DNA from: a virus | Lineage: Duplodnaviria; Caudoviricetes | Length of the DNA stretch: 64,000 nt | Virus record (IMG/VR): IMGVR_UViG_3300028603_000021 | Span: 32,001-96,000 of that record | Reading direction: 5' to 3' (one strand) | Part shown: piece after piece, positions 1-47,658 of the stretch | Position numbering within the stretch: position 1 is the stretch's first letter | Layout: each line of letters begins with the position of its first letter | Position numbers and translations under genes: made by a program | The notes under the pieces: generated by a model | Told to the model about the DNA's origin: nothing | Seen by the model: only the letters and a program-made list of their open reading frames with translations | The model's database searches: none

Positions 1-509
1 ATATCCACCACAAATTGGACGTAGTAACCATCGGCTCTTTTTAAGAGCCTGACTCTGCGAATTAAATCCTCTGGGTAGTGGTGAATGTCGTTAGTTCCGA
101 TAAGGCGCAGTTTTCCTATGTTGTTTTTATCGGTGAAGGTAATAGATTTCCCCTCAACCTTCCACCCAGACTGTTTATACTCTACGCTTCGCATTGATTT
201 AAACTTGGGATACCCAACTGGTTTTTGTCCGGTCTTAACACGGTCGTAGAATCTAGAGATTGCTGCCCAAGCTCTTTCTGATGCCGCCTGAACTGCGGTT
301 GAGTTAAGCTGACCTGCCCATTCAAACTCCTTGCGTAGTTGCGTGGTATATTTGTACAAATCATACTTACCTACCTTGGTATCCGAATCTTTCGCATCCA
401 TCCAAAGTCGTAAGCACTTGTTACGAACAAACCCGGCAGTCCGGATAGCCGCGTCTATAGTAGCAGCCTGTGCTGGTTTTGTTCTTGCTTTGTACTCAAT
501 TATAATCAC
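1..509 (-). CDS. tnpB: IS200/IS605-family TnpB (RNA-guided endonuclease), N-terminal part; runs off window edge; absent from ORF track
   Basis: Manual translation from GTG at 509: MIIIEYKARTKPAQAATIDAAIRTAGFVRNKCLRLWMD...LNSTAVQAASERAWAAISRFY...GYPKFK...RSVEYKQSGWK...RRVRLLKRADGYYVQFVVD, typical of the TnpB N-terminus; TATAAT 6 nt upstream (leaderless). Confidence 0.9.
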   Translation of the reverse strand, partial: MIIIEYKARTKPAQAATIDAAIRTAGFVRNKCLRLWMDAKDSDTKVGKYDLYKYTTQLRKEFEWAGQLNSTAVQAASERAWAAISRFYDRVKTGQKPVGYPKFKSMRSVEYKQSGWKVEGKSITFTDKNNIGKLRLIGTNDIHHYPEDLIRRVRLLKRADGYYVQFVVD

Positions 510-591
510 GTGTTAATTATACACGTTCTTACGCTGGAAAAGCAAGCGCAATTCATCCCATGACTGAAGTCACGGGCGTTCTTGCTTCGTC
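1..591 (-). mobile_element. IS605/IS1341-like element; left end, no tnpA upstream of tnpB
   Basis: Subterminal hairpin CCCATGACTGAAGTCACGGG (557-576) inside a larger AGCAAG..CTTGCT stem; TTAC (minus strand, 592-595) abuts the end, as for IS608-like targets. Confidence 0.75.
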
Positions 592-687
592 GTAAAAGAA
601 GATAGATACCACTCAGCATCAAGAGTACCTATCGCGTCTAGGATATTATTCTGATAAAGCTCGTCGATCATAGCTATCGCCTTTCTG

Positions 688-777
688 TGGCGGAGGAGCA
701 GGGGGTCGAACCCTGACCGCTGTTACACGGGCACGTTTAGCAAACGTGTGCGACGAGCCACTATTCGCCTCTCCTCC
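688..777 (-). tRNA. tRNA-Ser(GCT)
   Basis: Cloverleaf GGAGGAG/CTCCTCC, anticodon arm CACGT-TTGCTAA-ACGTG, long variable arm, GGTTCGAC T-loop, encoded CCA. Confidence 0.93.
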
Positions 778-800
778 TCAACGCTTGTTTTTTGTCTTGG

Positions 801-1127
801 CTAGACTTTCGTCCACTCGATAATCTCTACCATCCTAGTCGTCTTCTTGGCAACTTCCTCGGGCTCACCGATATCATATTCGTTTTCCTGATTTTCTGTC
901 AACCCCACACTGTATGGGAACCCATAGTAACGCCCGGTTTCATTAGAACGAAAAACCGCCAGCATATACCTATGCCACCTGCCAGAATCAGTTTCTACTG
1001 TGTCAACTAAGTCAAACTCGTCGTTACCGTCATACACCATGTCTTCCGGATATTCCTCAAGCGCCACCCTCAATTTCTCTAGGTCGTTATTTACCGGCTT
1101 TACAGCTATTCCCATCACAAACACCAT
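801..1127 (-). CDS. hypothetical phage protein
   Basis: 108-aa acidic ORF with GAAAGGA RBS, co-oriented with neighbours. Confidence 0.7.
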   Translation of the reverse strand: MVFVMGIAVKPVNNDLEKLRVALEEYPEDMVYDGNDEFDLVDTVETDSGRWHRYMLAVFRSNETGRYYGFPYSVGLTENQENEYDIGEPEEVAKKTTRMVEIIEWTKV

Positions 1128-1134
1128 CCTTTCT

Positions 1135-1326
1135 TTATCTTAGCAGCGCGTAATAGGCAATAACGGCTATCACCAGCACTATACTAAGCACCATCTTGAT
1201 TAATTCGTCCTTCAGCATAAACTTCTCGCCTACAACCACAAATAGCATCATCCCGAGAAAAAGATATGCGCCCCACATATTGTGCAGGCTCCACACGTCA
1301 TCCCCACTTGACCACGTAAAGATCAA
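1135..1326 (-). CDS. small membrane protein (true start probably internal)
   Basis: Two hydrophobic segments. Confidence 0.5.
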   Translation of the reverse strand: MIFTWSSGDDVWSLHNMWGAYLFLGMMLFVVVGEKFMLKDELIKMVLSIVLVIAVIAYYALLR

Positions 1327-1567
1327 AGTTAGAGTTAGTAGGTATCCTGTCTACGCTGTACCCTAGAGCCCCCAGAGAACTCAGCTCAGCACCTGTGAGG
1401 TTGCGCAAAAGAAGCTGAGTATCTCCGTCAGCAATCGCTCTGAGAAGTTTCCTGCTAACCGCAGAGGCGTGCTTCGAAACTTCTCTAGCATAGTCGGCAG
1501 ACACAACGATAGGTGGTGTAGCTTGTTTCACCGAAGCGCCAAACACCTTAGAACCACTCTTTATCAT
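1298..1567 (-). CDS. hypothetical protein
   Basis: AGGAGGAGG RBS directly after tRNA-Lys CCA. Confidence 0.65.
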   Translation of the reverse strand: MIKSGSKVFGASVKQATPPIVVSADYAREVSKHASAVSRKLLRAIADGDTQLLLRNLTGAELSSLGALGYSVDRIPTNSNFDLYVVKWG

Positions 1568-1579
1568 TTCCCTCCTCCT

Positions 1580-1655
1580 TGGTGCGCCCTGTAGGATTCG
1601 AACCTACAAATCCACAGATTAAAAGTCTGTTGCCTTACCGTTTGGCTAAGGACGC
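1580..1655 (-). tRNA. tRNA-Lys(TTT)
   Basis: Anticodon arm ACAGA-CTTTTAA-TCTGT, GGTTCGAATCC, ACCA end. Confidence 0.95.
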
Positions 1656-1692
1656 ATGAGGTAATATAGCGTGCATAAAGATGAGAAATATG

Positions 1693-1769
1693 TGGTGGCT
1701 AGAAGTGGAATTGAACCACTGACACCCCGCTCTTCAGGCGGGTGCTCTACCAGACTGAGCTATCTAGCC
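1693..1769 (-). tRNA. tRNA-Phe(GAA)
   Basis: Anticodon arm CCCGC-CTGAAGA-GCGGG, GGTTCAATTCC, ACCA end. Confidence 0.95.
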
Positions 1770-1773
1770 GTGT

Positions 1774-1848
1774 TGGAGCCCCTTGCAGGAATTGCACCCA
1801 CGTCAGTAGTTTACAAGACTACCGCTCTGCTAATTGAGCTAAAGGGGC
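1774..1848 (-). tRNA. tRNA-Thr(TGT)
   Basis: Anticodon arm GTAGT-CTTGTAA-ACTAC; variant T-loop (TGCAATT); TCCA end. Confidence 0.9.
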
Positions 1849-2111
1849 AGATTTTTGTTGTACGCTTTCTTAACTAGTTCAGCAAGCTCTAGTGCTTGTT
1901 CTTCGCTGAGTATCACTGTTTCTGTCAGAAGGTTTCCATGGCGTAGAATCTGCCATGCTTGCTTAATCCTTCTCCAGGCGCTCGTGCGACTCCTTCCGCT
2001 GTTTCCATACTCCCAGAACGAAAAGTAGATATCGTTTTCTTCTGAGTATTTTTCAACCTCAAGGGAATGGCTAGAACACTCGCACTTGAAGTGCTTTGAC
2101 ACGTGCATCAT
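1839..2111 (-). CDS. hypothetical phage protein
   Basis: CxC-x2-H N-terminus, translationally coupled to upstream ORF. Confidence 0.65.
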   Translation of the reverse strand: MMHVSKHFKCECSSHSLEVEKYSEENDIYFSFWEYGNSGRSRTSAWRRIKQAWQILRHGNLLTETVILSEEQALELAELVKKAYNKNLPL

Positions 2112-2248
2112 TCTTCCTTTTCGTTAGCGTAGATTGCTCGGATAGCAGACTGTGCTTTCTCTTTGGTGGCGTGGTGAGAAACCACTTTTCCAGAATCCTT
2201 CTTGACTACTACCCACTTGTCTCCCTGGCGCTTGACCTTATACGGCAT
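2108..2248 (-). CDS. small basic phage protein (46 aa, below ORF-track cutoff)
   Basis: MPYKVKRQGDKWVVVKKDSGKVVSHHATKEKAQSAIRAIYANEKEE with GGAGG RBS. Confidence 0.7.
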   Translation of the reverse strand: MPYKVKRQGDKWVVVKKDSGKVVSHHATKEKAQSAIRAIYANEKEE

Positions 2249-2260
2249 ATATCCCTCCGA

Positions 2261-2482
2261 TCACGCTTGTATAGCCCACCAAGAGTCTATCATGTAATCT
2301 ATCTCTTGTATAGTGGCTTCGTCTAGCTCCTCTTCCTCGTTCAAGGTAGACGCCAGCTTCATGAGCATCCTTTTCACAAAGTACTCATGAACAGCATCAC
2401 TGTTAGGGGCGCTTTCTGAATACTGCCAAGCTCTTTCTAGACCAGTAGAGACAGCATACATGACTAACTCAGTCAGTGTCAC
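2261..2482 (-). CDS. hypothetical protein
   Basis: GGAGG RBS, GTG start. Confidence 0.6.
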   Translation of the reverse strand: MTLTELVMYAVSTGLERAWQYSESAPNSDAVHEYFVKRMLMKLASTLNEEEELDEATIQEIDYMIDSWWAIQA

Positions 2483-2501
2483 ACGATGACCTCCGTTTTG
2501 A

Positions 2502-2585
2502 TGGTAGGAGCGGTGGGAGTCGAACCCACATGCACAAGGCGACAGATTTTAAGTCTGTTCTGTAAACCAGTTCCAGCACGCTCCC
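2502..2585 (-). tRNA. tRNA-Leu(TAA)
   Basis: Anticodon arm ACAGA-CTTAAAA-TCTGT, variable arm present, ACCA end. Confidence 0.93.
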
Positions 2586-2591
2586 AAAAGT

Positions 2592-2669
2592 TGGTGTCCG
2601 TGGCTGGATTTGAACCAGCACATTTTACGGGTCTAAGCCGTAATCCTCTGCCAGTTGGGATACACGGAC
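2592..2669 (-). tRNA. tRNA-Leu(TAG), short variable region
   Basis: Anticodon arm TACGG-CTTAGAC-CCGTA, 6-nt variable loop, GGTTCAAATCC, ACCA end. Confidence 0.88.
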
Positions 2670-2673
2670 ATGC

Positions 2674-2883
2674 CTAGTATTCGTCCTCGTATTCATCCTC
2701 ATCGTCTTCATACCCATAGTAACTTACTGGACGGCTGGTTATAATCCTCCCATGGCAGTAAGGACACGCTGGAAGATCGTCTACCACGCCCTTAACTGGC
2801 TCAGCAAACTCACCATCACACGAAGTATACCACGTATCCTCGTCATATACCCAGAAACAAGCATCTCTGTCAGTCACTATCAT
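2674..2883 (-). CDS. small Zn-ribbon-like protein with acidic tail
   Basis: C..C and CPYC motifs. Confidence 0.6.
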   Translation of the reverse strand: MIVTDRDACFWVYDEDTWYTSCDGEFAEPVKGVVDDLPACPYCHGRIITSRPVSYYGYEDDEDEYEDEY

Positions 2884-2905
2884 AGTTTCCCCTTATCCTT
2901 GCCGA

Positions 2906-2939
2906 AGATAATTCCGCCCGAAGCATCACTCCGGGCGGG
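2906..2939 (-). terminator. probable intrinsic terminator closing the tRNA-Met/ribozyme unit
   Basis: CCGCCCGGAG-TGATG-CTTCGGGCGG hairpin followed by AATTATCTT (weak U-tract). Confidence 0.55.
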
Positions 2940-2961
2940 TCTAGAAAGGAGGTAGTACTTT

Positions 2962-3011
2962 GGTCTTTGGTTTGAATCCAGACACGCCACGTGGAGGCAG
3001 ACCTTGTGTCC
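2962..3011 (-). ncRNA. minimal HDV-like (theta-type) self-cleaving ribozyme #1
   Basis: GGACAC-AA-GGUCU-GCC-UCCACGU-GGC-GUGUCU-GG-AUUCAAA-CCAA-AGACC: P1 with G1-U wobble, P2, P3, L3 with CC:GG P1.1, J4/2 cytidine; no P4. Confidence 0.85.
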
Positions 3012-3089
3012 GTTTGGCCTCCGAAGAGGCAGATGCCGATACTTCCTAGGAGCTTTCGACACCCCTTGCACCCGTCGATGCAAGCTGGT

Positions 3090-3165
3090 TGGTTGCGCGG
3101 GAGGGATTCGAACCCACCTTAAGCAGCTTATGAGGCTGATGAACACACCAGTATTCTTCCGCGCA
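3090..3165 (-). tRNA. tRNA with CAT anticodon (Met; fMet or Ile2 not resolved)
   Basis: TGCGCGG/CCGCGCA acceptor, loop CTCATAA, GGTTCGAATCC, ACCA end. Confidence 0.85.
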
Positions 3166-3175
3166 TCGTTGTCAC

Positions 3176-3204
3176 AGTATACATCACCTCTGACTGTATG
3201 TCAA
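3176..3204 (-). promoter_or_regulatory. sigma70-type promoter for tRNA-Met/ribozyme unit
   Basis: TTGACA-17 nt-TATACT. Confidence 0.8.
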
Positions 3205-3429
3205 GTAGTACGATGCTGGTATTCCCTGCCAGATAAAGTCTTCATCTTCTTCGTCGCGTATATCTATCTCGGCCTCACACATGCTCATCCCACCTGTGTC
3301 CTCTTTACACCATCCGCAAATTAAATGCTCCCATGCATAATCTTCCGCTTCCTTCAGCGAGTAAAACTTTTTGTCTATATCTCTGCTCGGTAGCTCGATT
3401 ATATACATAGAATCCTTTCTTTGGGACAA
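3184..3429 (-). CDS. hypothetical protein (likely start ~3408)
   Basis: Acidic ORF, GAAAGGA RBS after tRNA-His. Confidence 0.55.
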   Translation of the reverse strand: MSQRKDSMYIIELPSRDIDKKFYSLKEAEDYAWEHLICGWCKEDTGGMSMCEAEIDIRDEEDEDFIWQGIPASYYLTYSQR

Positions 3430-3496
3430 CCGGAGGGAGTTGAACCCTCACCAACTCCGTCACAAGGAGGTATGCAGCCATTACACCACGGTTGAC
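3422..3496 (-). tRNA. tRNA-His(GTG)
   Basis: Loop TTGTGAC, encoded G-1 opposite C73, CCA end. Confidence 0.9.
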
Positions 3497-3672
3497 ATGC
3501 GGCTAAAGGTCTCAGCAGGCTCTTCATAGAAAGGGTCTACCATTTCAGCTCCGGGTCGGTACTCAAGGATTCCAAGGTTGACCAGAAGCTGCCCGAAACG
3601 CTGCTGTGGATGTCTCTCCACCTGTTGCGATAGGCTCTCTACTATCTTTCTGTTGTACTCTTGTCTGGTCAT
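3481..3672 (-). CDS. hypothetical phage protein
   Basis: HPQQRFGQLL..DPFYEE motif recurrent in small phage proteins; AAGGAG RBS. Confidence 0.65.
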   Translation of the reverse strand: MTRQEYNRKIVESLSQQVERHPQQRFGQLLVNLGILEYRPGAEMVDPFYEEPAETFSRMSTVV

Positions 3673-3688
3673 TTCTTTCTCCTTAAGT

Positions 3689-3762
3689 TGGCTGCCCCGC
3701 CAGGGCTCGAACCTAGATTAACCGAGTCAAAGTCGGTTGTCGTGCCATTAGACCACGAGGCA
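3689..3762 (-). tRNA. tRNA-Gln(TTG)
   Basis: Anticodon arm ACCGA-CTTTGAC-TCGGT, U1-A72 pair, GCCA end. Confidence 0.93.
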
Positions 3763-3817
3763 ATGTTGTATTGCAGTTCTTATACTATCGGAATAGAGCG
3801 TGAGAATGATGATAACT

Positions 3818-4579
3818 TCAAACTCTTAAAAGTCCTAAATCTAATTCTTTATGGTGGTTAGGACAGAGGTACACGAGATTTTTTGGGTCATTTATTTCCT
3901 CCATAGTGGCTTCGTCGGGGAATGAGGAGATATTTTTTATATGGCATAGCTCCACATAGGTGTCATACCCACAAGACCTGCACACTTTTACCAGCCCTCT
4001 TCTCGCTGCCAACCTTCTTGCTCCAGTGCGGATTCTTACGTAGTACTCGTGGGACACGTTGTTGCACATCTCTTTGAACTGACCAAACGTTTTAGAGAGA
4101 TAATCCTCATCGGCCTTCTCTTTCATCCCTGCTATCCTACAGTCAGAACATTGCTTTGACGTTGACAATATATTCTTCCCGCAGTAACAAGTGCCACTTT
4201 TCCCAGACTTAGCTGCTACTTTCTTGTGATTTACATAATGAACACCCTTAGTTCGTTTGGGATGTAGAGTGTTGTTATAAGTAGCCGAGCAGCTGCTGTT
4301 GCAAAATACCTTTCCCTTGGCGTCTGCTTCTCGTCTAAGTACGTCTTCTCCGCAGTTATCACAGCTAAGCACTAGTCGCGGGACTGCCCGAGACTTTGCC
4401 GCACAAGCAGCACTACAAAATAATGATCTGCCGTGCTTTATCGCGGCTTGTATCTTAGACTTTTTCCTAGTTACGTCCAATCCGCAACCTACGCAGTTTA
4501 TCGCCAGATGGTCTGAAGATTTCAGATGTCTTAATCTAGAGATAATTTCCTGGTAACAGTCGGGGGTCACTAGTAACAC
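3818..4579 (-). CDS. HNH homing endonuclease with Cys-rich Zn-finger repeats, inserted in tRNA cluster
   Basis: Multiple CxxC / FCSxxC repeats; C-terminal CRSCG..ELCHIK..NLVYLCPNHH. Confidence 0.85.
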   Translation of the reverse strand: MLLVTPDCYQEIISRLRHLKSSDHLAINCVGCGLDVTRKKSKIQAAIKHGRSLFCSAACAAKSRAVPRLVLSCDNCGEDVLRREADAKGKVFCNSSCSATYNNTLHPKRTKGVHYVNHKKVAAKSGKSGTCYCGKNILSTSKQCSDCRIAGMKEKADEDYLSKTFGQFKEMCNNVSHEYYVRIRTGARRLAARRGLVKVCRSCGYDTYVELCHIKNISSFPDEATMEEINDPKNLVYLCPNHHKELDLGLLRV

Positions 4580-4628
4580 AAAGATATGTTATCACAGCTG
4601 TAGTCGAGAGTCAAGTTTTCGAACTAGA

Positions 4629-4704
4629 TGGTAGCGGGTGTAGGATTTGAACCTCTCTTCACCCTTCCAAAGGGTGTATGCTCCCAGTTTACATCACACC
4701 CACT
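4629..4704 (-). tRNA. tRNA-Pro(TGG), atypical acceptor/T geometry
   Basis: Anticodon arm CACCC-TTTGGAA-GGGTG, GGTTCAAATCC, ACCA; folds best as 9-bp acceptor plus 3-bp T stem. Confidence 0.75.
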
Positions 4705-4731
4705 GCGTGGACTCAAACATAGATGAAGATA

Positions 4732-5042
4732 GAGCCTTTTAACGCCATGCTCAGGGCTAACCCTATAAAACCTTTTAACGCCATGTCCGGGGCTGCTCTT
4801 TGTATACCACCCTCTAGCTCCGCTCGTGAAGAAGCTGAGGGGTAAGATAAGAGCAGTTTTAAGTCTTACTCAGGACTAGGAGGTAGGTGGAGCAGTTTAA
4901 TTGCCTTACTCAGGGCGGTCAAGCCGATTCCGGGTGTGCTAGCACTCAGGTTTCCAGACTCCTACCGGGTTAACCTGATACAGCTGTTACCCGCGCCGCT
5001 GCTTGGGGCGGAGCCTTTTTCAGTCGTGCTCAGGACTTGGTT
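4732..5042 (-). ncRNA. putative ncRNA built of repeated H-type pseudoknot modules
   Basis: Five 26-27-nt imperfect repeats (4732-4757, 4768-4793, 4851-4876, 4890-4916, 5011-5036) plus a degenerate one (4981-5010), with compensatory changes; ORF-free; own promoter. Confidence 0.75.
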
Positions 5043-5048
5043 TATCTA

Positions 5049-5077
5049 ATTATAGCAACTTTAGTCGTTCTTGTCAA
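5049..5077 (-). promoter_or_regulatory. perfect consensus sigma70 promoter driving the pseudoknot array
   Basis: TTGACA-17 nt-TATAAT with extended TGn; predicted start ~5042. Confidence 0.88.
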
Positions 5078-5258
5078 ACGGCGGGTCTAGAAGACCCTTA
5101 CCACGCGAAAGCTTGCTGAATATCAAGTAGAGGTAGAAGGGTATCCCAACCGGCCACACGAAGAAGTAGAGAGTATCCTCTGGTTCAAAACCTCCCCTTC
5201 CGCGAGCCAGCCCGAACAGCATCCCACACACCCAAAGTCCTATCAAGTAGATTCCCAT
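5061..5258 (-). CDS. small membrane protein
   Basis: Two hydrophobic segments, AAGGAGG RBS. Confidence 0.65.
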   Translation of the reverse strand: MGIYLIGLWVCGMLFGLARGRGGFEPEDTLYFFVWPVGIPFYLYLIFSKLSRGKGLLDPPFDKND

Positions 5259-5295
5259 TGCTTTACCTCCTTTCCTCTATACTATCACTAGTCAG

Positions 5296-5547
5296 CTACG
5301 GTGTCAACTTCTTTGCAAGGTTAAGGACAGCTTCTTCTTCTGTAGCCCCGAATCCTTCAACCTCAAGGCTGTCATCGTCTGGAAAGATAGCACGGGCTAC
5401 ATAGCCACTTTCTGTTTCCTCTACCTGAACCATATAGCTGCTGACCTTTTCAGTGGTCGTAGTGACCTTAGTACCGAACTCAGACCACACATACGAAGCA
5501 GCCGCTGCCCCTAGAAGAAAAGCTCCCAGCATCTCAAACCACGGCAT
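5296..5547 (-). CDS. hypothetical protein, N-terminal TM and HicB-like C-terminus
   Basis: GYVARA..GFGATEEEAVLNL resembles the HicB fold. Confidence 0.55.
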   Translation of the reverse strand: MPWFEMLGAFLLGAAAASYVWSEFGTKVTTTTEKVSSYMVQVEETESGYVARAIFPDDDSLEVEGFGATEEEAVLNLAKKLTP

Positions 5548-5855
5548 CAGAGGCTGTTCCTGAACTTAGACCAAGACACGCTCCATATGGTATAAAAACC
5601 GTCCACCAGAAGAGCCACATCGTCTACAGAAATTGTTTCTCCACCCTTAGTGAGCTGGATACCCTTAGCAATGGGCGGAATTAATTCAGTGACGCTCTCA
5701 CCGTCTGAGAGCACCCAAGACTCAAGCTCTTGGTCATACCAGCTGCTCCTCGGGTTGTCTGTGAAGAACCACGCTGAGCTATCACCAGCATCTATAAACA
5801 ACGTACCAAACTCTCCTTCAAAATCTAGTCTCATGCTCACCTTCTTTCTGACCAC
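5547..5855 (-). CDS. hypothetical protein
   Basis: Coupled ORF. Confidence 0.55.
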   Translation of the reverse strand: MVRKKVSMRLDFEGEFGTLFIDAGDSSAWFFTDNPRSSWYDQELESWVLSDGESVTELIPPIAKGIQLTKGGETISVDDVALLVDGFYTIWSVSWSKFRNSL

Positions 5856-5888
5856 TTTCGTGATAAGATAATTCCCGCTTTAGTGATA

Positions 5889-6191
5889 TCACTGCTCAGC
5901 ATAAGAAACATGAGGAACCCACCCAGCAGTCTCAAGCTCTGTACACACAGCTGGGAACAATTCATCTGGCACGCGGATACGGAAGATATACACCGGCTCC
6001 CCGAACGGATTTATGCCAACGTCTAGCAACGGGTAGGTAGTCATAGTGGTTTCTATAAACAACGACTGCACAGCGATCTCTGTTTCGTCGCTGCGCTTCT
6101 TGAAAACCCTCTCAGAGGTTGTGTCGGCTACTGTTACATAGCCGACAACCTGCGTAAGCTCTAGCTCTACCGGGTACCCATCACCTTTCAT
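5889..6191 (-). CDS. hypothetical protein
   Basis: Coupled ORF. Confidence 0.6.
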   Translation of the reverse strand: MKGDGYPVELELTQVVGYVTVADTTSERVFKKRSDETEIAVQSLFIETTMTTYPLLDVGINPFGEPVYIFRIRVPDELFPAVCTELETAGWVPHVSYAEQ

Positions 6192-6365: not shown

Positions 6366-6545
6366 TTACTCCTCTTCGTCTTCGTAGTACTCGTCGTACA
6401 GACGCCTCACTGCTGCTTGTGGGGAGTACCCAGCATCAAACATATCTCTGAGTTCAGGCTGGGACACCTCCCCAAGCTCCATGCCTAGCATAGCCCACAG
6501 CGACGTGTCTAGCTCGTCGAGCCAGGTATCAAAATCCCACTCCAT
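6366..6545 (-). CDS. small acidic protein (59 aa, below cutoff)
   Basis: MEWDFDTWLDELDTSLW...YEDEEE, start overlaps rIIB stop. Confidence 0.6.
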   Translation of the reverse strand: MEWDFDTWLDELDTSLWAMLGMELGEVSQPELRDMFDAGYSPQAAVRRLYDEYYEDEEE

Positions 6546-7573
6546 CAGAGAGCCTCGATGTGGTACCTGTAGACAGCGTTAGCAGTGTGGCTCAGGTCAA
6601 GCTTCTCAGCGAAGTAGTATTCTAGGTTGTCTCTGCCATAACCCAAGGCCTCAGCAAGGTCAGCATAGCTGTTCGCTACTTTACCCTTCATGCTGTAGCT
6701 AGAGACAGCACCCTTAAGCTCTGCAATAAAATCCTCGTAGTAGCCGTCTTCATCCTCTTGGATGTCGTAGTCTTCTGCGCTGAGGTCGTCGTTGTAGAAA
6801 AGGTCATCCCACGCCTCGTTGAGTTCTGAGGTTCTTACTACATAGCGGCAGACACGCACCTTGGCATTATCGTAATCAAGGGGCACCGACACTACGTCTC
6901 GTGGGTTTACCTCCACACCCACCAAGCGCGGCGCAAACCCAGTCGCGTACTGGTAGCTGCCGACGTGCAACCCGACATCACAGGCTTTTGTTGCGTCGGA
7001 GCTTACTCGGCTGCGTGGAAACTCAACCACGTTACCTACCGCATTATCCAAGCGTCCATGCTCGATAACTTCCCCGTTCACGATGCCGTAACCAGCATGG
7101 ACTGAAAAACCATCCGTGTTTACGCCCTTGTAAGCAAGGAAATTTCCCGAAGCCGTGATAGAAAGACCGTGCCTCGTCAAGAAGTTGTAGAGCTGCTCAC
7201 GGCTCTCCGCGTTAGGGTTCTGCATCAAGTTCTCAAGGAAGTTGAGCATAGGGGTGATGTTTTCGTAGCCGCGCCTGTAGCGTTCGGCAATCGCATCACT
7301 CAGAACCCCAGGAAGAACTTCACCATCGAAGTAGATTCCTCCGTTGTCACCGTATGAGATACGGTCTGTGAGTGCTTCGAGGTAGGTAGCGATGTTACTC
7401 CCAGGTGTGTTGAGCAAGTCACGAAGGTCTTCTTCGCTCACTCCGGAAATCAGAGCCTCGACAATCTTCCGAGAGCGTGGGTGGTCTCCACGGATCACGT
7501 GGAGACTCCCGTCCTCTAGAGTTACCGATGCTGTCGTGTTGTCGTTGCTTGAAGTTATAAGGTATGAATACAT
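6545..7573 (-). CDS. rIIB: rIIB-like protein
   Basis: ITASGNFLAYKGV..VGNVVEFPR..ACDVGLHVG..VEVNPRDVVSVPLDY..KVRVCRY motifs; follows rIIA. Confidence 0.88.
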   Translation of the reverse strand: MYSYLITSSNDNTTASVTLEDGSLHVIRGDHPRSRKIVEALISGVSEEDLRDLLNTPGSNIATYLEALTDRISYGDNGGIYFDGEVLPGVLSDAIAERYRRGYENITPMLNFLENLMQNPNAESREQLYNFLTRHGLSITASGNFLAYKGVNTDGFSVHAGYGIVNGEVIEHGRLDNAVGNVVEFPRSRVSSDATKACDVGLHVGSYQYATGFAPRLVGVEVNPRDVVSVPLDYDNAKVRVCRYVVRTSELNEAWDDLFYNDDLSAEDYDIQEDEDGYYEDFIAELKGAVSSYSMKGKVANSYADLAEALGYGRDNLEYYFAEKLDLSHTANAVYRYHIEAL

Positions 7574-7575
7574 TT

Positions 7576-9525
7576 TTATCCTTCTCCTCTCTCGTTGATG
7601 TAGTTCTGAAGCTCTTCTAAGCCTGCGCTGAACAGAAGTGGGTATTCTTTTCTCGCCTCTTCCAGAGCCTCCTTTATCTCTTTCTCAGCCGCTTGCAGCC
7701 TATCACGCACCTCTGTGAGAACCGTGTGACTTATTCCGCTGCCCTTCAGCCTGAGCAAGGTGGCGATTGTTTTCTGCGTAGTATCCCCGTAGGAGGGAAA
7801 ACCACGAAGCTTACCCAGAGCCTCAGAGCCGCCCTTGGTGCTGCGGAAAGCCGAGTAGTTTGTGAACATGTAGCTGCTCACGTAGTTTTTCCTAGCGAAC
7901 ATCATGAGGGCTTCCTTCGAGATGCTCACGGCAGAAAGTGTGTCGTCAACAAACTTCGAAACGTGCCTAGCGCCCTTGAGCCCCTTGTAGACGTGCTCAG
8001 TGTCCTTCTTAGACACGTGCATGTTAGTCGGGATGATAGTCGTAACAGACGCTAGCTCCTTAACCACGGGAAGGTACTTATCCCAGTCGTTTCTGTTCCC
8101 GTAGACGACCTTTGTAAGGTCAGCATTCTTCTTATTAACTAAAACTTGCTTCCAGTCGCGTGTGAAGACGCGGAGCCTGGGTTCCTTCTTCTCACCCGGT
8201 GCCCTAGAGTCAAGCTTGATGCTGTTGATTTCTTCGTGAGACACGTACATGCGCTCTGGAATAACCTCAGAGGAGGGTTTCGCGCCTGTGATGGCGTACA
8301 CAGTGCACCCATTGTCCTGGGCGTACTTCTTTATCTTGCGTGCGAAATAGCCACTGGGCGCACCTTTGTAGAAAACTATATCACCAGAGCCCCTGTAGTG
8401 AGAGTAGTAGGGAAAAGCTGTGTAGCTCTTGGCTCTCTCCTTTGAATCCGGGGTGTACTTCGTGCACTGAAAGTTAAGTTCGTCTGGACGATATTTCAGA
8501 CTCCTGCCCTTGTAGTGTGGGTCAAGGTTAAAATACAACGCCCCGCCCTGCCACGCCTTCTGCGCAATCTGGTATGCCTCAAGCAGTGTTTCTGCTTCTT
8601 CTACCTCTTTTTCAACCTTAGACTGAAGCAGGGCTTCCGCTTGGGCAATTGCTTGTTTGACAAATTCTTTTGTGCGCTTAGTGGCATGAAGCTCCTCTCG
8701 GCTGGGGGTAAAATCTACAGCCCCTAGTGGAGCAAACACGAGAAGGCTGTTTGCCCGGTTCTTTTCGTCCCAGTCTAAATCTAACGCTGAGTTGCGGAAC
8801 GGGTATGCCACATTCCCCATCACAACTGCCCCGCCGTTATCGACCAGATATATAGAGTCAGACAACTTTTCCGCCGCGTCAACCGCGCTGACTACAGAGA
8901 AAGTCCCGTTGAACTCTGGCATAACATCCCAGTACTGGAAAATGTTCTTCATCTCTGTGTGGAACTGCGAGAGATTTGTATACCCGTTACCAGGAAGTGG
9001 GATGCTAACCAGGACACCGTTGGGCTCGTCTGTTATCGACGCAGACAGCTGAGTAAGGGTAGGGACACCCGCGTCATTCTTGTAAATCGAGTAAACCCCC
9101 TTGTTGCCGTCTTTGACAGTAGTCAGGGTGAACTGGTCTACGTAGGTCAGCGCAGACTTGCACCCCAAACCAAGCTGCCCGGTGGTGTCTGCCGACGTGC
9201 GCTTGGTCGAAGCCCCGTAAGCTCCGTAGATATCAAAGATTTCATCGTGGCTGAGACCTAGGCCAAAGTCCTGCACCGAAAACACGGGGTTAAGAGCGGT
9301 GGGTACACCAACCTTAATCGGCAGGTTGGGCTTGCCAGCAGCTACATGAGAGTCCATGGCGTTCGTGGAGTACTCTCGGATAACCGCTGCCACAGGGTTA
9401 GAGTAAAGGTTGGTGAGAACGTTCATCAGGTGTGGCAGGCTTGCTGTGTCGATTGTCATACCTTGCGTGCGCAAGGTTCCGCCAGACCGGATAACGCTCT
9501 CTTGGTTGGTATTAGGGATGCTCAA
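7576..9525 (-). CDS. rIIA: rIIA-like protein (GHKL ATPase domain)
   Basis: LYSNPVAAVIREYSTNAMDSH, DFGLGLS, STK, GQLGLGCKS, TPSREEL. Confidence 0.9.
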   Translation of the reverse strand: MSIPNTNQESVIRSGGTLRTQGMTIDTASLPHLMNVLTNLYSNPVAAVIREYSTNAMDSHVAAGKPNLPIKVGVPTALNPVFSVQDFGLGLSHDEIFDIYGAYGASTKRTSADTTGQLGLGCKSALTYVDQFTLTTVKDGNKGVYSIYKNDAGVPTLTQLSASITDEPNGVLVSIPLPGNGYTNLSQFHTEMKNIFQYWDVMPEFNGTFSVVSAVDAAEKLSDSIYLVDNGGAVVMGNVAYPFRNSALDLDWDEKNRANSLLVFAPLGAVDFTPSREELHATKRTKEFVKQAIAQAEALLQSKVEKEVEEAETLLEAYQIAQKAWQGGALYFNLDPHYKGRSLKYRPDELNFQCTKYTPDSKERAKSYTAFPYYSHYRGSGDIVFYKGAPSGYFARKIKKYAQDNGCTVYAITGAKPSSEVIPERMYVSHEEINSIKLDSRAPGEKKEPRLRVFTRDWKQVLVNKKNADLTKVVYGNRNDWDKYLPVVKELASVTTIIPTNMHVSKKDTEHVYKGLKGARHVSKFVDDTLSAVSISKEALMMFARKNYVSSYMFTNYSAFRSTKGGSEALGKLRGFPSYGDTTQKTIATLLRLKGSGISHTVLTEVRDRLQAAEKEIKEALEEARKEYPLLFSAGLEELQNYINERGEG

Positions 9526-13528: not shown

Positions 13529-14530
13529 TCAGTTGAACTCTTCCCCGGTCGCCTTCTTGGCGTACTTAGGGTTGATGAACTTAAGAATCAGTCTGGTACC
13601 TTTTGAGGTACGGCGAGGCTCTACGGGCTGCACAACACAACCTTCTCGGATGTGAAGCTCTCTACCGCTTACCTGCTCCATGCCCTTGGCCAGCTCTTCT
13701 GCTTTCTCCTCGCTGAATTCTCCCTCATACAGGATCGGGACACTAAGATACTCTAGCTCATCAGGCAACGGCAGCGACTGAGTGTTGTTTCTGTATTCGA
13801 ACAGCCGCAGGGTAGGCTCTGACTGCCCGTAGGTGTAACCCTTCTGGCATGGGATCATCTCTCCCACAAAATGATGTGTGGTATCGTTACTTAATGTAGC
13901 AAGCACCTCTTGCATACCGCTGTTGCGGAAAGCTTTCCAATAGGAGTTACCTTCGGACTCTTTGATAGCTAAACCACGCTTGAGCAAACCCTTGGAGGAA
14001 ATCCACACCTTACCGTCCCTGTAGATAACATTTTCCTGGGACCCGTGGAGTTTTTCTGAGATAACCACGGTTTCTCCAGGTTCCATGTCATCCTGAAATA
14101 TGCGGTAGTTATCTACGTCGTAGTACGTGATAAACGGTACATCAATTTCTTCGACTTCACCCTGTAGTTCTGTGGGGATAGGTCTGACATACTCCGTGAT
14201 GCCAAGCTTTTCTGATGTGTCTTCCCCTAAAGGTACGTTTGGCTTCAGATAGTCTGGCAGCGAGAGCACGACACCTTGTGAAAGCTCACCACGAAGCCTG
14301 ACCTCTTTAACACGGTTCTTTTCAGCACCAGTAAGGTAGTCTCGGAAAGGCTCAGCTAGCTCATCAGGCAGCAAACTATCCTTGGGGGCGAACAAGACGA
14401 CATCTCCGTCTTGGTACAAACCCTTCTGGACTACTAATGAATAAGTCCCTACCCTAGCGACCTCTAGCTTGTCTGCGTTAGGGTGGGGGAACAGTTTTAT
14501 CTCTTCTAGAGAAACTTTCCACTCTGACAC
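13529..14530 (-). CDS. ATP-dependent RNA ligase, DRB0094/Rnl5 family
   Basis: N-terminal HPNADKLEVA OB domain, RLRGELSQG, motif I EKLHGS, REGCVV, LKFINPKY. Confidence 0.9.
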   Translation of the reverse strand: MSEWKVSLEEIKLFPHPNADKLEVARVGTYSLVVQKGLYQDGDVVLFAPKDSLLPDELAEPFRDYLTGAEKNRVKEVRLRGELSQGVVLSLPDYLKPNVPLGEDTSEKLGITEYVRPIPTELQGEVEEIDVPFITYYDVDNYRIFQDDMEPGETVVISEKLHGSQENVIYRDGKVWISSKGLLKRGLAIKESEGNSYWKAFRNSGMQEVLATLSNDTTHHFVGEMIPCQKGYTYGQSEPTLRLFEYRNNTQSLPLPDELEYLSVPILYEGEFSEEKAEELAKGMEQVSGRELHIREGCVVQPVEPRRTSKGTRLILKFINPKYAKKATGEEFN

Positions 14531-20627: not shown

Positions 20628-21902
20628 TTAGCCCCCGTCCTTCCAGACCAGGACGGGCTTTGTACGAAACTTCAGCACACCTATTCCGGTGTCCTCGATT
20701 ACCTTAACTACCTCGTCAAAGTTCTTGTAGGCTCCAGAGGACTCGTCTATCGGAACGTCTTCGAAGTTGCCCATGATACCGGCTTCTTCAAGCTCCAGGT
20801 TAACTACGTCTTGGTCGAGAATCTTCTTTGCGTTGCCCCTTGACATCGTGCGCCCTGCGCCGTGGGGTACTGAGTCGCCGTAGCTAACGTTCCCAGGAGT
20901 GAAGATCGCACTACCGTCCTTCATGTTGCCGAGGACGACCATAGGGATTCCGTTGTTGTCGTACGCTGGAATAGTACCTTTACGTCCAATGTATTTACCA
21001 TTACGATACTCTATGAAGTTGTGAGGAATGTGAGAGAACTCGTTAACCCCTTGGTGGAAGACCCTGGCTACCGCTTCGTGTACCATGTAATGATTGTATG
21101 TTGCTATCTCTAGCATGGCTCGGTTAAAGGTGTAGTACACCTGTCCCAGCGCAGACTCGGCTGGCACATAGATTAGGTCATTAGCCAATCTTCCGCCCCA
21201 CGAGGATATTTCCTTCTTGATGGTGGCGTCAAAAACCCTAGCTAGCTTGTTGCCGAGTCCACGCGACCCGAAGTGAGAGGCTACGAAGTTCTGGCCTATG
21301 TCATTCTTCTCGATTGAGAGGAAATGGTTGCCTCCGCCGATGGTGTTGAACTGCTTCAACATGTTCTCGGTGAGGTTGTAGGTCATCAGCTTCTTGAATT
21401 CTTTGTAGTGTGGAGTGTCGCGCTCTTTCCATAGGGGTTCGTAAGAGTTGACCCATGCGCCCTCTGGACGCAGGTACCCGTCAACTATCTCCTGGAATTT
21501 GGCAGAGGTCATACCGGTGTCCCTTAGCTGGTTTCCAACCCCAACGGCCTCGGACACCTGACGGATAGCTTCACGCTTCTCCTTCTCCGATAGAGAGTCC
21601 ACATTGATGTTAATCTCGGACATCCCGACAGAGCACGCGGGGTCAACCCCAACGGTGTCAGGATACAAGTGTGTCGAGGACTCTAGGGTGGTGCCGATAG
21701 CGACCCCGTAGCCGAAGTGGGAGTCCGGCATTACCGAGACCTTTTCAATGCCCGGAAGTTCCATAGAAGCACGCACCTGTGTCAACGCTCCGTACTCGTA
21801 CTCTCCAAACAGCTGGTCGTTCATGACCAGGGTTGCCCATACGTTACCATGGCGCATCTTGTATATATTCCCCGCTTTGAACGGTTCAAATATGTCTGAC
21901 AT
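20628..21902 (-). CDS. rtcB: RtcB-family RNA ligase (2',3'-cyclic-P/3'-P to 5'-OH)
   Basis: MPDSHFGYG, GVDPAC, GGGNHF, HFGSRGLG, HNF, RKG, HGAGR, DESSGAYK. Confidence 0.93.
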   Translation of the reverse strand: MSDIFEPFKAGNIYKMRHGNVWATLVMNDQLFGEYEYGALTQVRASMELPGIEKVSVMPDSHFGYGVAIGTTLESSTHLYPDTVGVDPACSVGMSEININVDSLSEKEKREAIRQVSEAVGVGNQLRDTGMTSAKFQEIVDGYLRPEGAWVNSYEPLWKERDTPHYKEFKKLMTYNLTENMLKQFNTIGGGNHFLSIEKNDIGQNFVASHFGSRGLGNKLARVFDATIKKEISSWGGRLANDLIYVPAESALGQVYYTFNRAMLEIATYNHYMVHEAVARVFHQGVNEFSHIPHNFIEYRNGKYIGRKGTIPAYDNNGIPMVVLGNMKDGSAIFTPGNVSYGDSVPHGAGRTMSRGNAKKILDQDVVNLELEEAGIMGNFEDVPIDESSGAYKNFDEVVKVIEDTGIGVLKFRTKPVLVWKDGG

Positions 21903-22861: not shown

Positions 22862-23068
22862 TTATGTGATGGTTCCTATAAGTACGAAAAAGACGACCAC
22901 TATCACCCCGAGCAAAGCCATCACACCGATGACTGCGAAGAAGGCGAGCGCAACAGCTATAGGAAGCCAAAGCGGTGAAAAAACCCACCACCACGACCAC
23001 GAGATTACTCCCGTCAATTTCAGGATTAGAAAGATGAGTGTGAGTGCCCAGAGAACAGAATCTCTCAC
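22862..23068 (-). CDS. small membrane protein
   Basis: LTLIFLILKLTGVISWSWWWVFSPLW, a common phage TM motif. Confidence 0.7.
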   Translation of the reverse strand: MRDSVLWALTLIFLILKLTGVISWSWWWVFSPLWLPIAVALAFFAVIGVMALLGVIVVVFFVLIGTIT

Positions 23069-23712
23069 AAGGCTACCTGTGTCCCCTCGTTGAGGCATCG
23101 GAAAGTCACACCCCCTAGCTTAATCTCGGCATTTACGTGATAGTGCCCAAAGTACCAGTTCTTGACGTTCGGCAGCGCTTCCCAGAGCATGGATAACCCC
23201 TCTCCGGTGCGAGTGTTATAGATCTTTCTTCCCGGTAACAGCCGTGTAGTCACTTCACTCGGGCAGTCGTGAGACACCACCGTATGAACACTTCCCAGGT
23301 TAGGCAGGCGAAGGATGTCATCCCATTCCTCCCGGCTGAGTTCTTCCTCCGGCCACCAGTCTACCCCCGTCACGCGAGTGTTAGGCCACGCCCCAGTAAC
23401 ACCGTCAATGCTCCATGCTCCGCCAACATACATGATTCCATCCTCGATAGTTCCGTCTGGTATGTACGAAAAACCAGGATGCCTGAATTCTTTTACCTTG
23501 TGCGGGTTATCGTGGTTACCGCGTATAAACCTAAAGTACGGGGGCTTATCTATAGTTTTCGCATACAGCTCAAGATGTGCGTCTGCCGTTTCAGAGAAGC
23601 CGATACCCACGTCACCGACAAGGATTATCTGGTGGGCGTCGCTATGAAGCTTTCTCAGGCTCGGCAACCAGTATGTATGACCATGCAGGTCACCGACTAG
23701 TACAGTCTTCAT
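23065..23712 (-). CDS. calcineurin-like metallophosphoesterase
   Basis: GDLHG, VGD, RGNHD, SHDCP, FGHYH. Confidence 0.92.
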   Translation of the reverse strand: MKTVLVGDLHGHTYWLPSLRKLHSDAHQIILVGDVGIGFSETADAHLELYAKTIDKPPYFRFIRGNHDNPHKVKEFRHPGFSYIPDGTIEDGIMYVGGAWSIDGVTGAWPNTRVTGVDWWPEEELSREEWDDILRLPNLGSVHTVVSHDCPSEVTTRLLPGRKIYNTRTGEGLSMLWEALPNVKNWYFGHYHVNAEIKLGGVTFRCLNEGTQVAL

Positions 23713-46860: not shown

Positions 46861-47580
46861 ATGAATGACGTAACTTTGAGTGGGATTATAAGCGGATCGT
46901 TTCAGGAGTACGGTAACGACGGAATCCTGTTTAAGGCTGTTGTATCGGCTGGCAGTAACAACAGCGATGAATTCACGTGCTTAGCTTTCAGCAACAACGC
47001 CTCCTTCATCAAGCACAAGGGTAAGAGTGGTCAGCGCATCGTTTTCCAAGGCAGACTAGGTAGCGATAAACTCGGTACGGAAAACTACCACAGTGCCCTT
47101 ACTGTGGGTCGAGTCCTTGCGATAACTGACTCCGACAACGGTACTGACTCTGCATCTATCGTAGTCACAGGAGAATCCGAAGTACAGGATATCCGATACG
47201 TTGGGCAGAAAGAGACACCGTTGGTTCCCATCAAGATGACCAACCTCAGAAGCTTCCGAGGACGAGACGGGCAGACCAACACTTACAAGACATTCATCGG
47301 TGCCTCCGCATGGTCTGACAGGGCTGTGGCATTAAACGCTTCGTCTCCAGAGGGTGTCTACCCGCTGGTAGTCTCAGGATTCCTGAGGTCTAGGAACTAC
47401 GAGAACCAGGACGGCGACACCATCGAAAAGATTGATGTATGGGTGCAGGAGGTTCTACAGGGAGAAGGGCTCTTCGGTGACGAAGACTCCTCCCCGGCGG
47501 AGACTTCTAAGCTCGAGAAAAGCAGCAAAACCGAGAAGAAAGAGCCACGACGCGCTGCCGTTGACGACGCTCCTTTCTAA
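46861..47580 (+). CDS. ssb: single-stranded DNA-binding protein with two OB folds
   Basis: Two OB-like repeats (VFQGRL; VSGFLRSRNYENQDG), acidic tail DDAPF. Confidence 0.85.
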   Translation: MNDVTLSGIISGSFQEYGNDGILFKAVVSAGSNNSDEFTCLAFSNNASFIKHKGKSGQRIVFQGRLGSDKLGTENYHSALTVGRVLAITDSDNGTDSASIVVTGESEVQDIRYVGQKETPLVPIKMTNLRSFRGRDGQTNTYKTFIGASAWSDRAVALNASSPEGVYPLVVSGFLRSRNYENQDGDTIEKIDVWVQEVLQGEGLFGDEDSSPAETSKLEKSSKTEKKEPRRAAVDDAPF

Positions 47581-47602
47581 ACACGAGGGTAATTCCCTCG
47601 TA

Positions 47603-47658
47603 GACTCGCAGACTGATTGCCTCCACGTGGCGCGAGTTGGGTCAAGCTAAACATCAGT
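47603..47658 (+). ncRNA. minimal HDV-like self-cleaving ribozyme #2
   Basis: GACUCGC-AG-ACUGAU-U-GCC-UCCACGU-GGC-GCGAGUU-GG-GUCAAG-CUAA-AC-AUCAGU: 7-bp P1 with G1-U, P2, P3, P1.1, J4/2 CUAA. Confidence 0.87.

Follow-up and report, generated by a model that had tools for sequence, protein, structure and literature searches.

A theta-type HDV-like ribozyme 78 nt past a CCA-bearing phage tRNA-Met: sequence context and a possible role in transcript punctuation

Theta ribozymes are minimal HDV-like ribozymes, some of which are associated with phage tRNAs. According to the published catalogue, 42% of the theta occurrences are non-tRNA-associated (526 in annotated phages; 7704 unique sequences overall) (PMC10879173). 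These isolated ribozymes lie in non-coding DNA, in sense orientation with the neighbouring genes, and have been assigned no function; hairpins or terminators are not mentioned in the main text of that study (PMC10879173). Only 4.5% of the theta-associated tRNAs carry their own CCA, and theta-bearing phages are enriched 140-fold in DRB0094 RNA ligases and 250-fold in tRNA nucleotidyltransferases (PMC10879173). The initial annotation of the locus described here started from the premise that the cut of a theta ribozyme falls at a tRNA 3' end. The premise describes the tRNA-associated class but does not extend to the 42% lying elsewhere, so that displacement from a tRNA marks an already published class.

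We examined a window of 64,000 nt (the whole stretch of DNA analysed, positions 32,001 to 96,000 of IMG/VR record IMGVR_UViG_3300028603_000021), taken from a complete virus record of 190,018 bp. The ribozyme, referred to as rz1, comprises 50 nt on the minus strand (2962–3011), and its predicted cut lies between C3012 and G3011. Helix P1 (3011–3006 with 2985–2980, GGACAC/GUGUCU, 6 bp) begins with a G-U pair, G3011-U2980, as is usual in the theta class, where P1 has 6–7 bp. It is followed by the J1/2 segment AA (3005–3004) and by P2 (3003–2999 with 2966–2962, GGUCU/AGACC). P3 (2998–2996 with 2988–2986, GCC/GGC) is capped by L3 (UCCACGU, 2995–2989), in which CC 2994–2993 can pair with GG 2979–2978 to form P1.1; this core is the same as the commonest published ones. 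A short L4 of 7 nt (AUUCAAA, 2977–2971; 5–8 nt in the class) takes the place of a P4 helix and leads into J4/2 (CCAA, 2970–2967, of the form C-N-A-A), whose first base, C2970, is by this parse the predicted catalytic cytidine. Every element of the nested double pseudoknot that had been read from the sequence was recovered at its position on the minus strand. P2 deviates from the published layout: it has only 5 bp, with A-A mismatches beyond, where the published layout provides a 7-position field. The motif is intergenic and lies on the sense strand.

A field-by-field comparison with published theta sequences agreed with the assignment of rz1 as a theta-type minimal HDV-like ribozyme. The entries of Supplementary Data File 2 of Kienbeck et al. 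2024 (PMC10879173) have the same field order and P3/L3 core; sequence 1904 shares L4 AUUCAAA together with J4/2 CCAA, and sequences 1891 and 1934 share the P1 pair GGACAC/GUGUCU. A metagenomic ribozyme directly after a CCA-less tRNA-Met (L237) has P1 and L4 in common with rz1, and the theta ribozyme L138 is a natural example of a 6-bp P1 and a 5-bp P2 in a total of 50 nt. Among 75 non-redundant relatives P2 has 5 bp in 2 and 6 bp in 13, P1 has 6 bp in 28, and G1 is paired with U in 62. We consider it very probable that rz1 is a real theta-type ribozyme, with cleavage predicted from its family. Judged by sequence and position it belongs to the published non-tRNA-associated class and not to a new one. 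On its own, rz1 adds little, as the published catalogue already lists thousands of theta ribozymes that are not at tRNAs.

The frequency of the motif by chance was assessed with a descriptor. Its 5' half required a P1 of 6–7 bp starting with G, a J1/2 of 0–3 nt, a P2 of at least 5 bp and a P3 of 3 bp; its 3' half required an L3 matching U-NN-NCGY whose NN pairs with the dinucleotide that follows P1, an L4 of 3–11 nt and a J4/2 of the form C-N-A-A. Applied to both strands of the 190,018-bp genome, this search, which had been proposed as a check in the initial annotation, returned rz1 as the single full match, and a looser version also found a second ribozyme, rz2. The full descriptor gave no match in 100 dinucleotide-preserving shuffled genomes, and with the C of J4/2 replaced by A, G or U it gave none in the 190,018-bp genome. 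The partial motif (core, P1 and P1.1, with P2 and J4/2 dropped) was observed twice, compared with 0.14 times per shuffled genome. No HDV-type family was found by Rfam in window 1–6000 (gathering score and E <= 10); this silence on rz1 is expected, because rz1 is a P4-less pseudoknotted variant.

Upstream of rz1, a sigma-70-like promoter (3176–3204, minus strand, TTGACA-17-TATACT, 11 of 12 positions matching) predicts a transcription start at ~3169, 4 nt ahead of a tRNA-Met gene (CAU; 3090–3165, minus strand; ARAGORN, Rfam tRNA 46.9 bits). The tRNA ends at 3090 with ...GCGCAACCA, and its own CCA is encoded in the genome, as had been claimed. Between tRNA and ribozyme lies a spacer of 78 nt (3012–3089, minus strand; MFE -32.1, z -2.7) with three hairpins, H1 (3084–3065), H2 (3064–3031) and H3 (GCCUC-UUCG-GAGGC, 3030–3017). 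H3 ends 5 nt ahead of the cut, and the spacer closes with CAAAC (3016–3012) directly before it. Neither ARAGORN nor the Rfam tRNA model detected a tRNA in the spacer, and acceptor pairing is absent; an Rfam search gave no match and no paralogue was found in the genome. We also considered the spacer as a decayed or unrecognised tRNA and rejected this, as it lacks the T arm and acceptor stem, unlike the 78–91-nt spacers of other phages described below. The predicted cut thus falls in RNA that is not tRNA-like, 78 nt beyond the nearest tRNA 3' end, outside the +/-5 nt that define the tRNA-associated subclass. Since tRNA-Met has its own CCA and the predicted cut lies in non-tRNA RNA, the RNA whose 3' end rz1 would define is not a mature tRNA. 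To this extent the earlier proposal of a 3' end on a different RNA stands, without the general premise from which it started.

The linker after the ribozyme contains an anti-Shine-Dalgarno-like tract of 11 nt, ACCUCCUUUCU (2943–2953, minus strand). It is followed by a GC-rich hairpin of 11 pairs and AAUUAUCUU (2914–2938, minus strand), which is terminator-like or an attenuator. The hairpin passes a loose terminator scan (5 T in 8); its tail, AAUUAUCUU, is a weak one and is able to base-pair with the SD region downstream. Directly after the hairpin comes the ribosome-binding site of ORF69 (2674–2883, minus strand), a 69-aa ORFan with four cysteines (zinc-ribbon-like) and an acidic tail, for which a homologue search returned only itself. 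Two tRNA-Leu genes come after ORF69, and no promoter match for ORF69 or the tRNA-Leu genes was found before 2482. The locus had been described as a self-contained transcription unit. Promoter, tRNA, structured spacer, ribozyme and hairpin are indeed all present; however, as the U-tract is weak and the downstream genes lack a promoter of their own, the unit is probably read through and not self-contained. Anti-SD-like tracts of the CUCCUUUCU type adjoin both ribozymes of this phage (2943–2953, minus strand; 47570–47578, plus strand).

The fold of rz1 has a competitor. The 3' half of H3, GGAGGC (3017–3022), is perfectly complementary to GCCUCC of P3/L3 (2993–2998) on the minus strand; in the resulting nested fold GGAC pairs with GUCU as well. 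This alternative was calculated at -21.0 kcal/mol, compared with -17.8 kcal/mol for H3, P1 and P3 without the pseudoknot helices P2 and P1.1, and the MFE structure of the 301-nt transcript holds the GGAGGC/GCCUCC pairing and lacks P1. As the alternative is favoured in these calculations, cleavage by rz1 could be slow or conditional, and the GGAGGC/GCCUCC pairing is a possible folding switch that would block the ribozyme. By a rough hand estimate, the full native fold may lie near the same energy as the alternative. Which of the two is reached may depend on whether the UUCG hairpin forms co-transcriptionally.

The second theta-type ribozyme, rz2 (47603–47658, plus strand), gave a complete parse in the looser search. 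It has a 7-bp P1, a P2 of 6 bp with one additional bulged U, the P3/L3 core of rz1 and CUAAAC at J4/2. It starts 22 nt past the stop codon of the SSB gene and 1 nt past a 7-bp hairpin (47584–47601). Approximately 136 nt of structured RNA separate it from a dNMP kinase gene. Three sister phages (SSB 53–55% identical) keep the gene order around SSB; at the position of rz2 they have a gap of 65–73 nt that holds a GC hairpin with a U-rich tail (terminator-like) and no ribozyme. In the predicted MFE structure, an anti-SD-like tract in the last SSB codons reaches over the ribozyme and pairs with the SD of the dNMP kinase gene. Cleavage by rz2 could, according to this model, free the ribosome-binding site of the kinase gene.

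The phage encodes 28 tRNAs and a tmRNA. CCA ends are encoded in 24 of the 28 tRNA genes, and none of the 28 abuts a theta core. Because CCA-less tRNAs are few, none abuts a theta core and the spacer is not a tRNA, rz1 is most likely not a tRNA trimmer and would instead divide a long transcript. The genome also carries a set of RNA end-repair genes: a DRB0094-family RNA ligase (TIGR02306, 252 bits; window 13529–14530, minus strand), RtcB (window 20628–21902, minus strand), a metallophosphoesterase (window 23065–23712, minus strand) and a PolyA_pol + HD nucleotidyltransferase of the CCA-adding type (genome 162914–164638, plus strand, equal to L104:1270-2994). With both the ligase and the nucleotidyltransferase, its gene content is typical of phages that carry theta ribozymes (PMC10879173), which agrees with the assignment of rz1.

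Several further observations concern the phage and its tRNA array. Genes for rIIA-like (HATPase_c_3) and rIIB-like (PF26926) proteins adjoin the array (window 6545–9525, minus strand); their nearest isolate relatives, in Streptomyces and Microbacterium phages, are only ~32–41% identical, and the phage lineage has no cultured relative. An HNH endonuclease gene lies between tRNA-Pro and tRNA-Gln (window 3818–4579, minus strand) and also occurs in an ENA contig (L222, 1305–2066). It is missing from two otherwise 99%-identical contigs (L223/L224), a presence/absence polymorphism of a mobile gene. Near it, an IS605 OrfB/TnpB-like gene differs in orientation between contigs.

Relatives of the locus itself proved scarce. 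Blastn of the locus against isolate phages gave no match, and exact and degenerate rz1 patterns and the 3' half of tRNA-Met retrieved no relatives from IMG/VR. A first metagenome scan returned nothing, and a second returned only other theta ribozymes that share L4, with no orthologues. In sister phages identified via SSB and rIIB homologues (48–55% identity), both ribozymes are missing from the syntenic regions. No diverged orthologue of rz1 was found in the collections searched, and hence there is no covariation for it. A candidate motif in common with a sister phage, AAAGUAC, was not enriched and was dropped. The unit is 100% identical in near-identical contigs from four samples. Samples containing the phage include ERZ27247346, IMG 3300009868 and SRR6032601.

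In order to see what isolated theta ribozymes follow in other phages, we surveyed two core families picked from IMG/VR by core sequence, with related sequences included. In the first family, 62 of 100 matches parsed as full ribozymes; 13 were tRNA-adjacent and none lay 70–90 nt from a tRNA. The catalytic position is C in all 62, in a parse whose scoring favoured C. Among the unique isolated copies of this family, 21 of 35 have a helix of 5 bp or more that ends no further than 3 nt from the cut, compared with 19/175 and 33/175 in control windows 40–200 nt away. The second family shows such a helix in 11/24, with 26/120 and 18/120 in the controls. The pattern of a hairpin followed by a cut is matched exactly by rz2 and more loosely by rz1 (5 nt). 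None of 34 isolated copies (non-redundant set) lies inside a same-strand ORF, and 12 of 28 lie 22–63 nt downstream of the stop codon of an ORF with 80 or more codons. The enrichment of upstream hairpins does not prove 3'-end protection, as such a hairpin could merely insulate the folding of the ribozyme.

In eight IMG/VR loci of other phages (L169, L194, L218, L177, L164, L189, L200 and L121) the 78–91 nt between a called tRNA and the theta ribozyme are tRNAs missed by ARAGORN. T arm and acceptor stem are clearly recognisable in them, and several show an odd D arm and a CAU anticodon loop. Some members of the published isolated class may thus turn out to be tRNA-associated.

Based on the sequence context we propose that rz1 acts as a transcript-punctuation and 3'-end-forming element and not in tRNA trimming, a role that we hold to be somewhat better than evenly probable. 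Transcription would proceed from the promoter at 3204–3176 or from promoters further upstream, and the UUCG hairpin H3 would form first. Next, the double pseudoknot would fold (P1, P2, P3 and P1.1). As in other members of the family, C2970 with Mg2+ would catalyse the reaction, in which the 2'-OH of C3012 attacks the phosphate between C3012 and G3011. On the upstream side this would leave tRNA-Met and a 78-nt three-hairpin trailer, terminated by hairpin-CAAAC and a 2',3'-cyclic phosphate. The RNA downstream of the cut would carry a 5'-OH on the folded ribozyme, followed by the anti-SD-like linker, the strong hairpin, ORF69 and the two tRNA-Leu genes. In this way rz1 would uncouple the upstream stable-RNA part from the downstream message and leave a 3' end that is closed by a hairpin and capped by a cyclic phosphate. 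Immediately behind the SSB gene rz2 would do likewise, where the sister phages carry a terminator-like hairpin. The invariance of the unit among near-identical contigs, described below, speaks weakly for constraint under this reading too.

We rank this punctuation as the most likely role, ahead of a special 78-nt RNA and of a downstream 5' end. If the 78-nt three-hairpin RNA were itself the functional product, tRNA 3' processing would free its 5' end and the ribozyme its 3' end. Extra stable RNAs are known from phage tRNA clusters, e.g. the species 1 and 2 RNAs of T4. The spacer is tRNA-sized, folds better than its shuffles and has boundaries that coincide exactly with the two processing sites; it is also identical in five contigs with ~1% flank variation. 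However, neither Rfam, nor blastn against isolate phages, nor a search of its own genome yielded a homologue or paralogue, no covariation is seen, and the sister phages carry unrelated sequence after their tRNA-Met. Moreover, the general hairpin-before-cut rule accounts for H3. Three near-identical contigs, each from a different sample, have no variant in the 548 nt between the promoter and the start of the ORF, with flanks differing by ~1%; as roughly 5 variants would be expected, zero is weak evidence of constraint. Such small-RNA biogenesis appears unlikely to us. Slightly more unlikely is a role at the other side of the cut, in which rz1 would make a 5'-OH, ribozyme-capped start, either for an RNA of ~105 nt (ribozyme, anti-SD-like tract and terminator hairpin) that acts on ribosome-binding sites or for the stability or translation of the ORF69/tRNA-Leu message. 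Processing of 5' ends by HDV-like ribozymes is known from R2 and other retrotransposon RNAs, and ORF69 lacks its own promoter. The tract ACCUCCUUUCU is mostly unpaired in the centroid fold, between the ribozyme and a strong hairpin, which is a typical sRNA layout. Against this, the tract is a single unconserved 11-mer, and its pairing with the SD of ORF69 appears only in a low-frequency MFE structure and is absent from the centroid. Among isolated relatives, 6 of 30 have the next ORF start no more than 44 nt away, but 16 of 25 are nearer to the upstream stop than to the downstream start. The effect of a 5'-OH would also depend on host RNases.

An inactive relic or a chance motif, ribozyme-like but non-cleaving on account of its short P2 or a trapping alternative fold, is in our view very improbable. 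The 5-bp P2, an alternative fold that beats the nested native part by 3 kcal/mol and the lack of rz1 in sister phages would fit such a relic. Nevertheless, none of the invariant nucleotides is altered, nor is the catalytic C, the motif lies between genes on the sense strand, and the chance expectation lies far below one per genome. The same genome holds a second intact copy in rz2, rz1 is identical in four samples, and L138 is a natural relative with the same helix lengths. 

The punctuation reading may be extended tentatively, and with considerably more doubt than the role of rz1 itself, to a general proposal. Modules of hairpin and theta ribozyme might be a protein-independent way in which phages end or punctuate transcripts, replacing intrinsic terminators after genes and stable RNAs. 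Their cyclic-phosphate hairpin ends would resist polyadenylation and 3' exonucleases, and might be reopened, extended or rejoined by the phage HD-domain CCA-adding enzyme, RtcB and DRB0094 ligase. The proposal is built on two intact ribozymes despite mostly CCA-bearing tRNAs, on rz2 in place of the sister hairpin and on the hairpin-before-cut trend. If true, the isolated theta ribozymes, published in their thousands, would gain a function, and the proposal may explain the enrichment of RNA ligases and CCA-adding enzymes in theta-bearing phages. The value of the finding lies in this context, since the published catalogue assigns the isolated class no function.

Of the known systems, the isolated theta ribozymes (PMC10879173) are the closest to rz1. 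They share the P4-less double pseudoknot with an RCC-U-CC-NCGY-GGY core, the GG of P1.1 and the C-N-A-A of J4/2, as well as the non-coding position in sense with the neighbours in a large tailed phage with DRB0094 ligase and CCA-adding enzyme. The differences are the P2 of 5 bp instead of a 7-position field and the location within a tRNA array, 78 nt past a CCA-bearing tRNA. Whereas the isolated class has no assigned function, the context of rz1 and rz2, with the upstream hairpins and the terminator-like hairpin of the sister phages at the rz2 position, suggests one. The tRNA-associated theta ribozymes are of the same family and also cut a few nt past a helix, with L237 as the nearest by P1 and L4. 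In contrast to them, rz1 is predicted to cut 78 nt off the tRNA instead of within 5 nt, this tRNA carries an encoded CCA, and the intervening RNA is not a tRNA.

With drz-Mtgn-1 to -4 (cited in PMC10879173) and the HDV/CPEB3 ribozymes, rz1 shares the nested double pseudoknot, the G-U pair at the cleavage site and the catalytic C in J4/2. Products of the HDV class carry a 2',3'-cyclic phosphate and a 5'-OH, and the same is predicted for rz1. Unlike the HDV/CPEB3 class, rz1 has no P4 helix and no match to an Rfam HDV family even at E <= 10. Intrinsic terminators and 3' stabiliser hairpins resemble the ribozyme modules in placing a hairpin-closed 3' end between genes, and rz2 occupies the very position of the sister hairpin. 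Unlike at a terminator, however, the end is predicted to arise by self-cleavage of the RNA after the hairpin; the polymerase may continue, and the upstream RNA would end in a cyclic phosphate instead of a U-tail with a 3'-OH.
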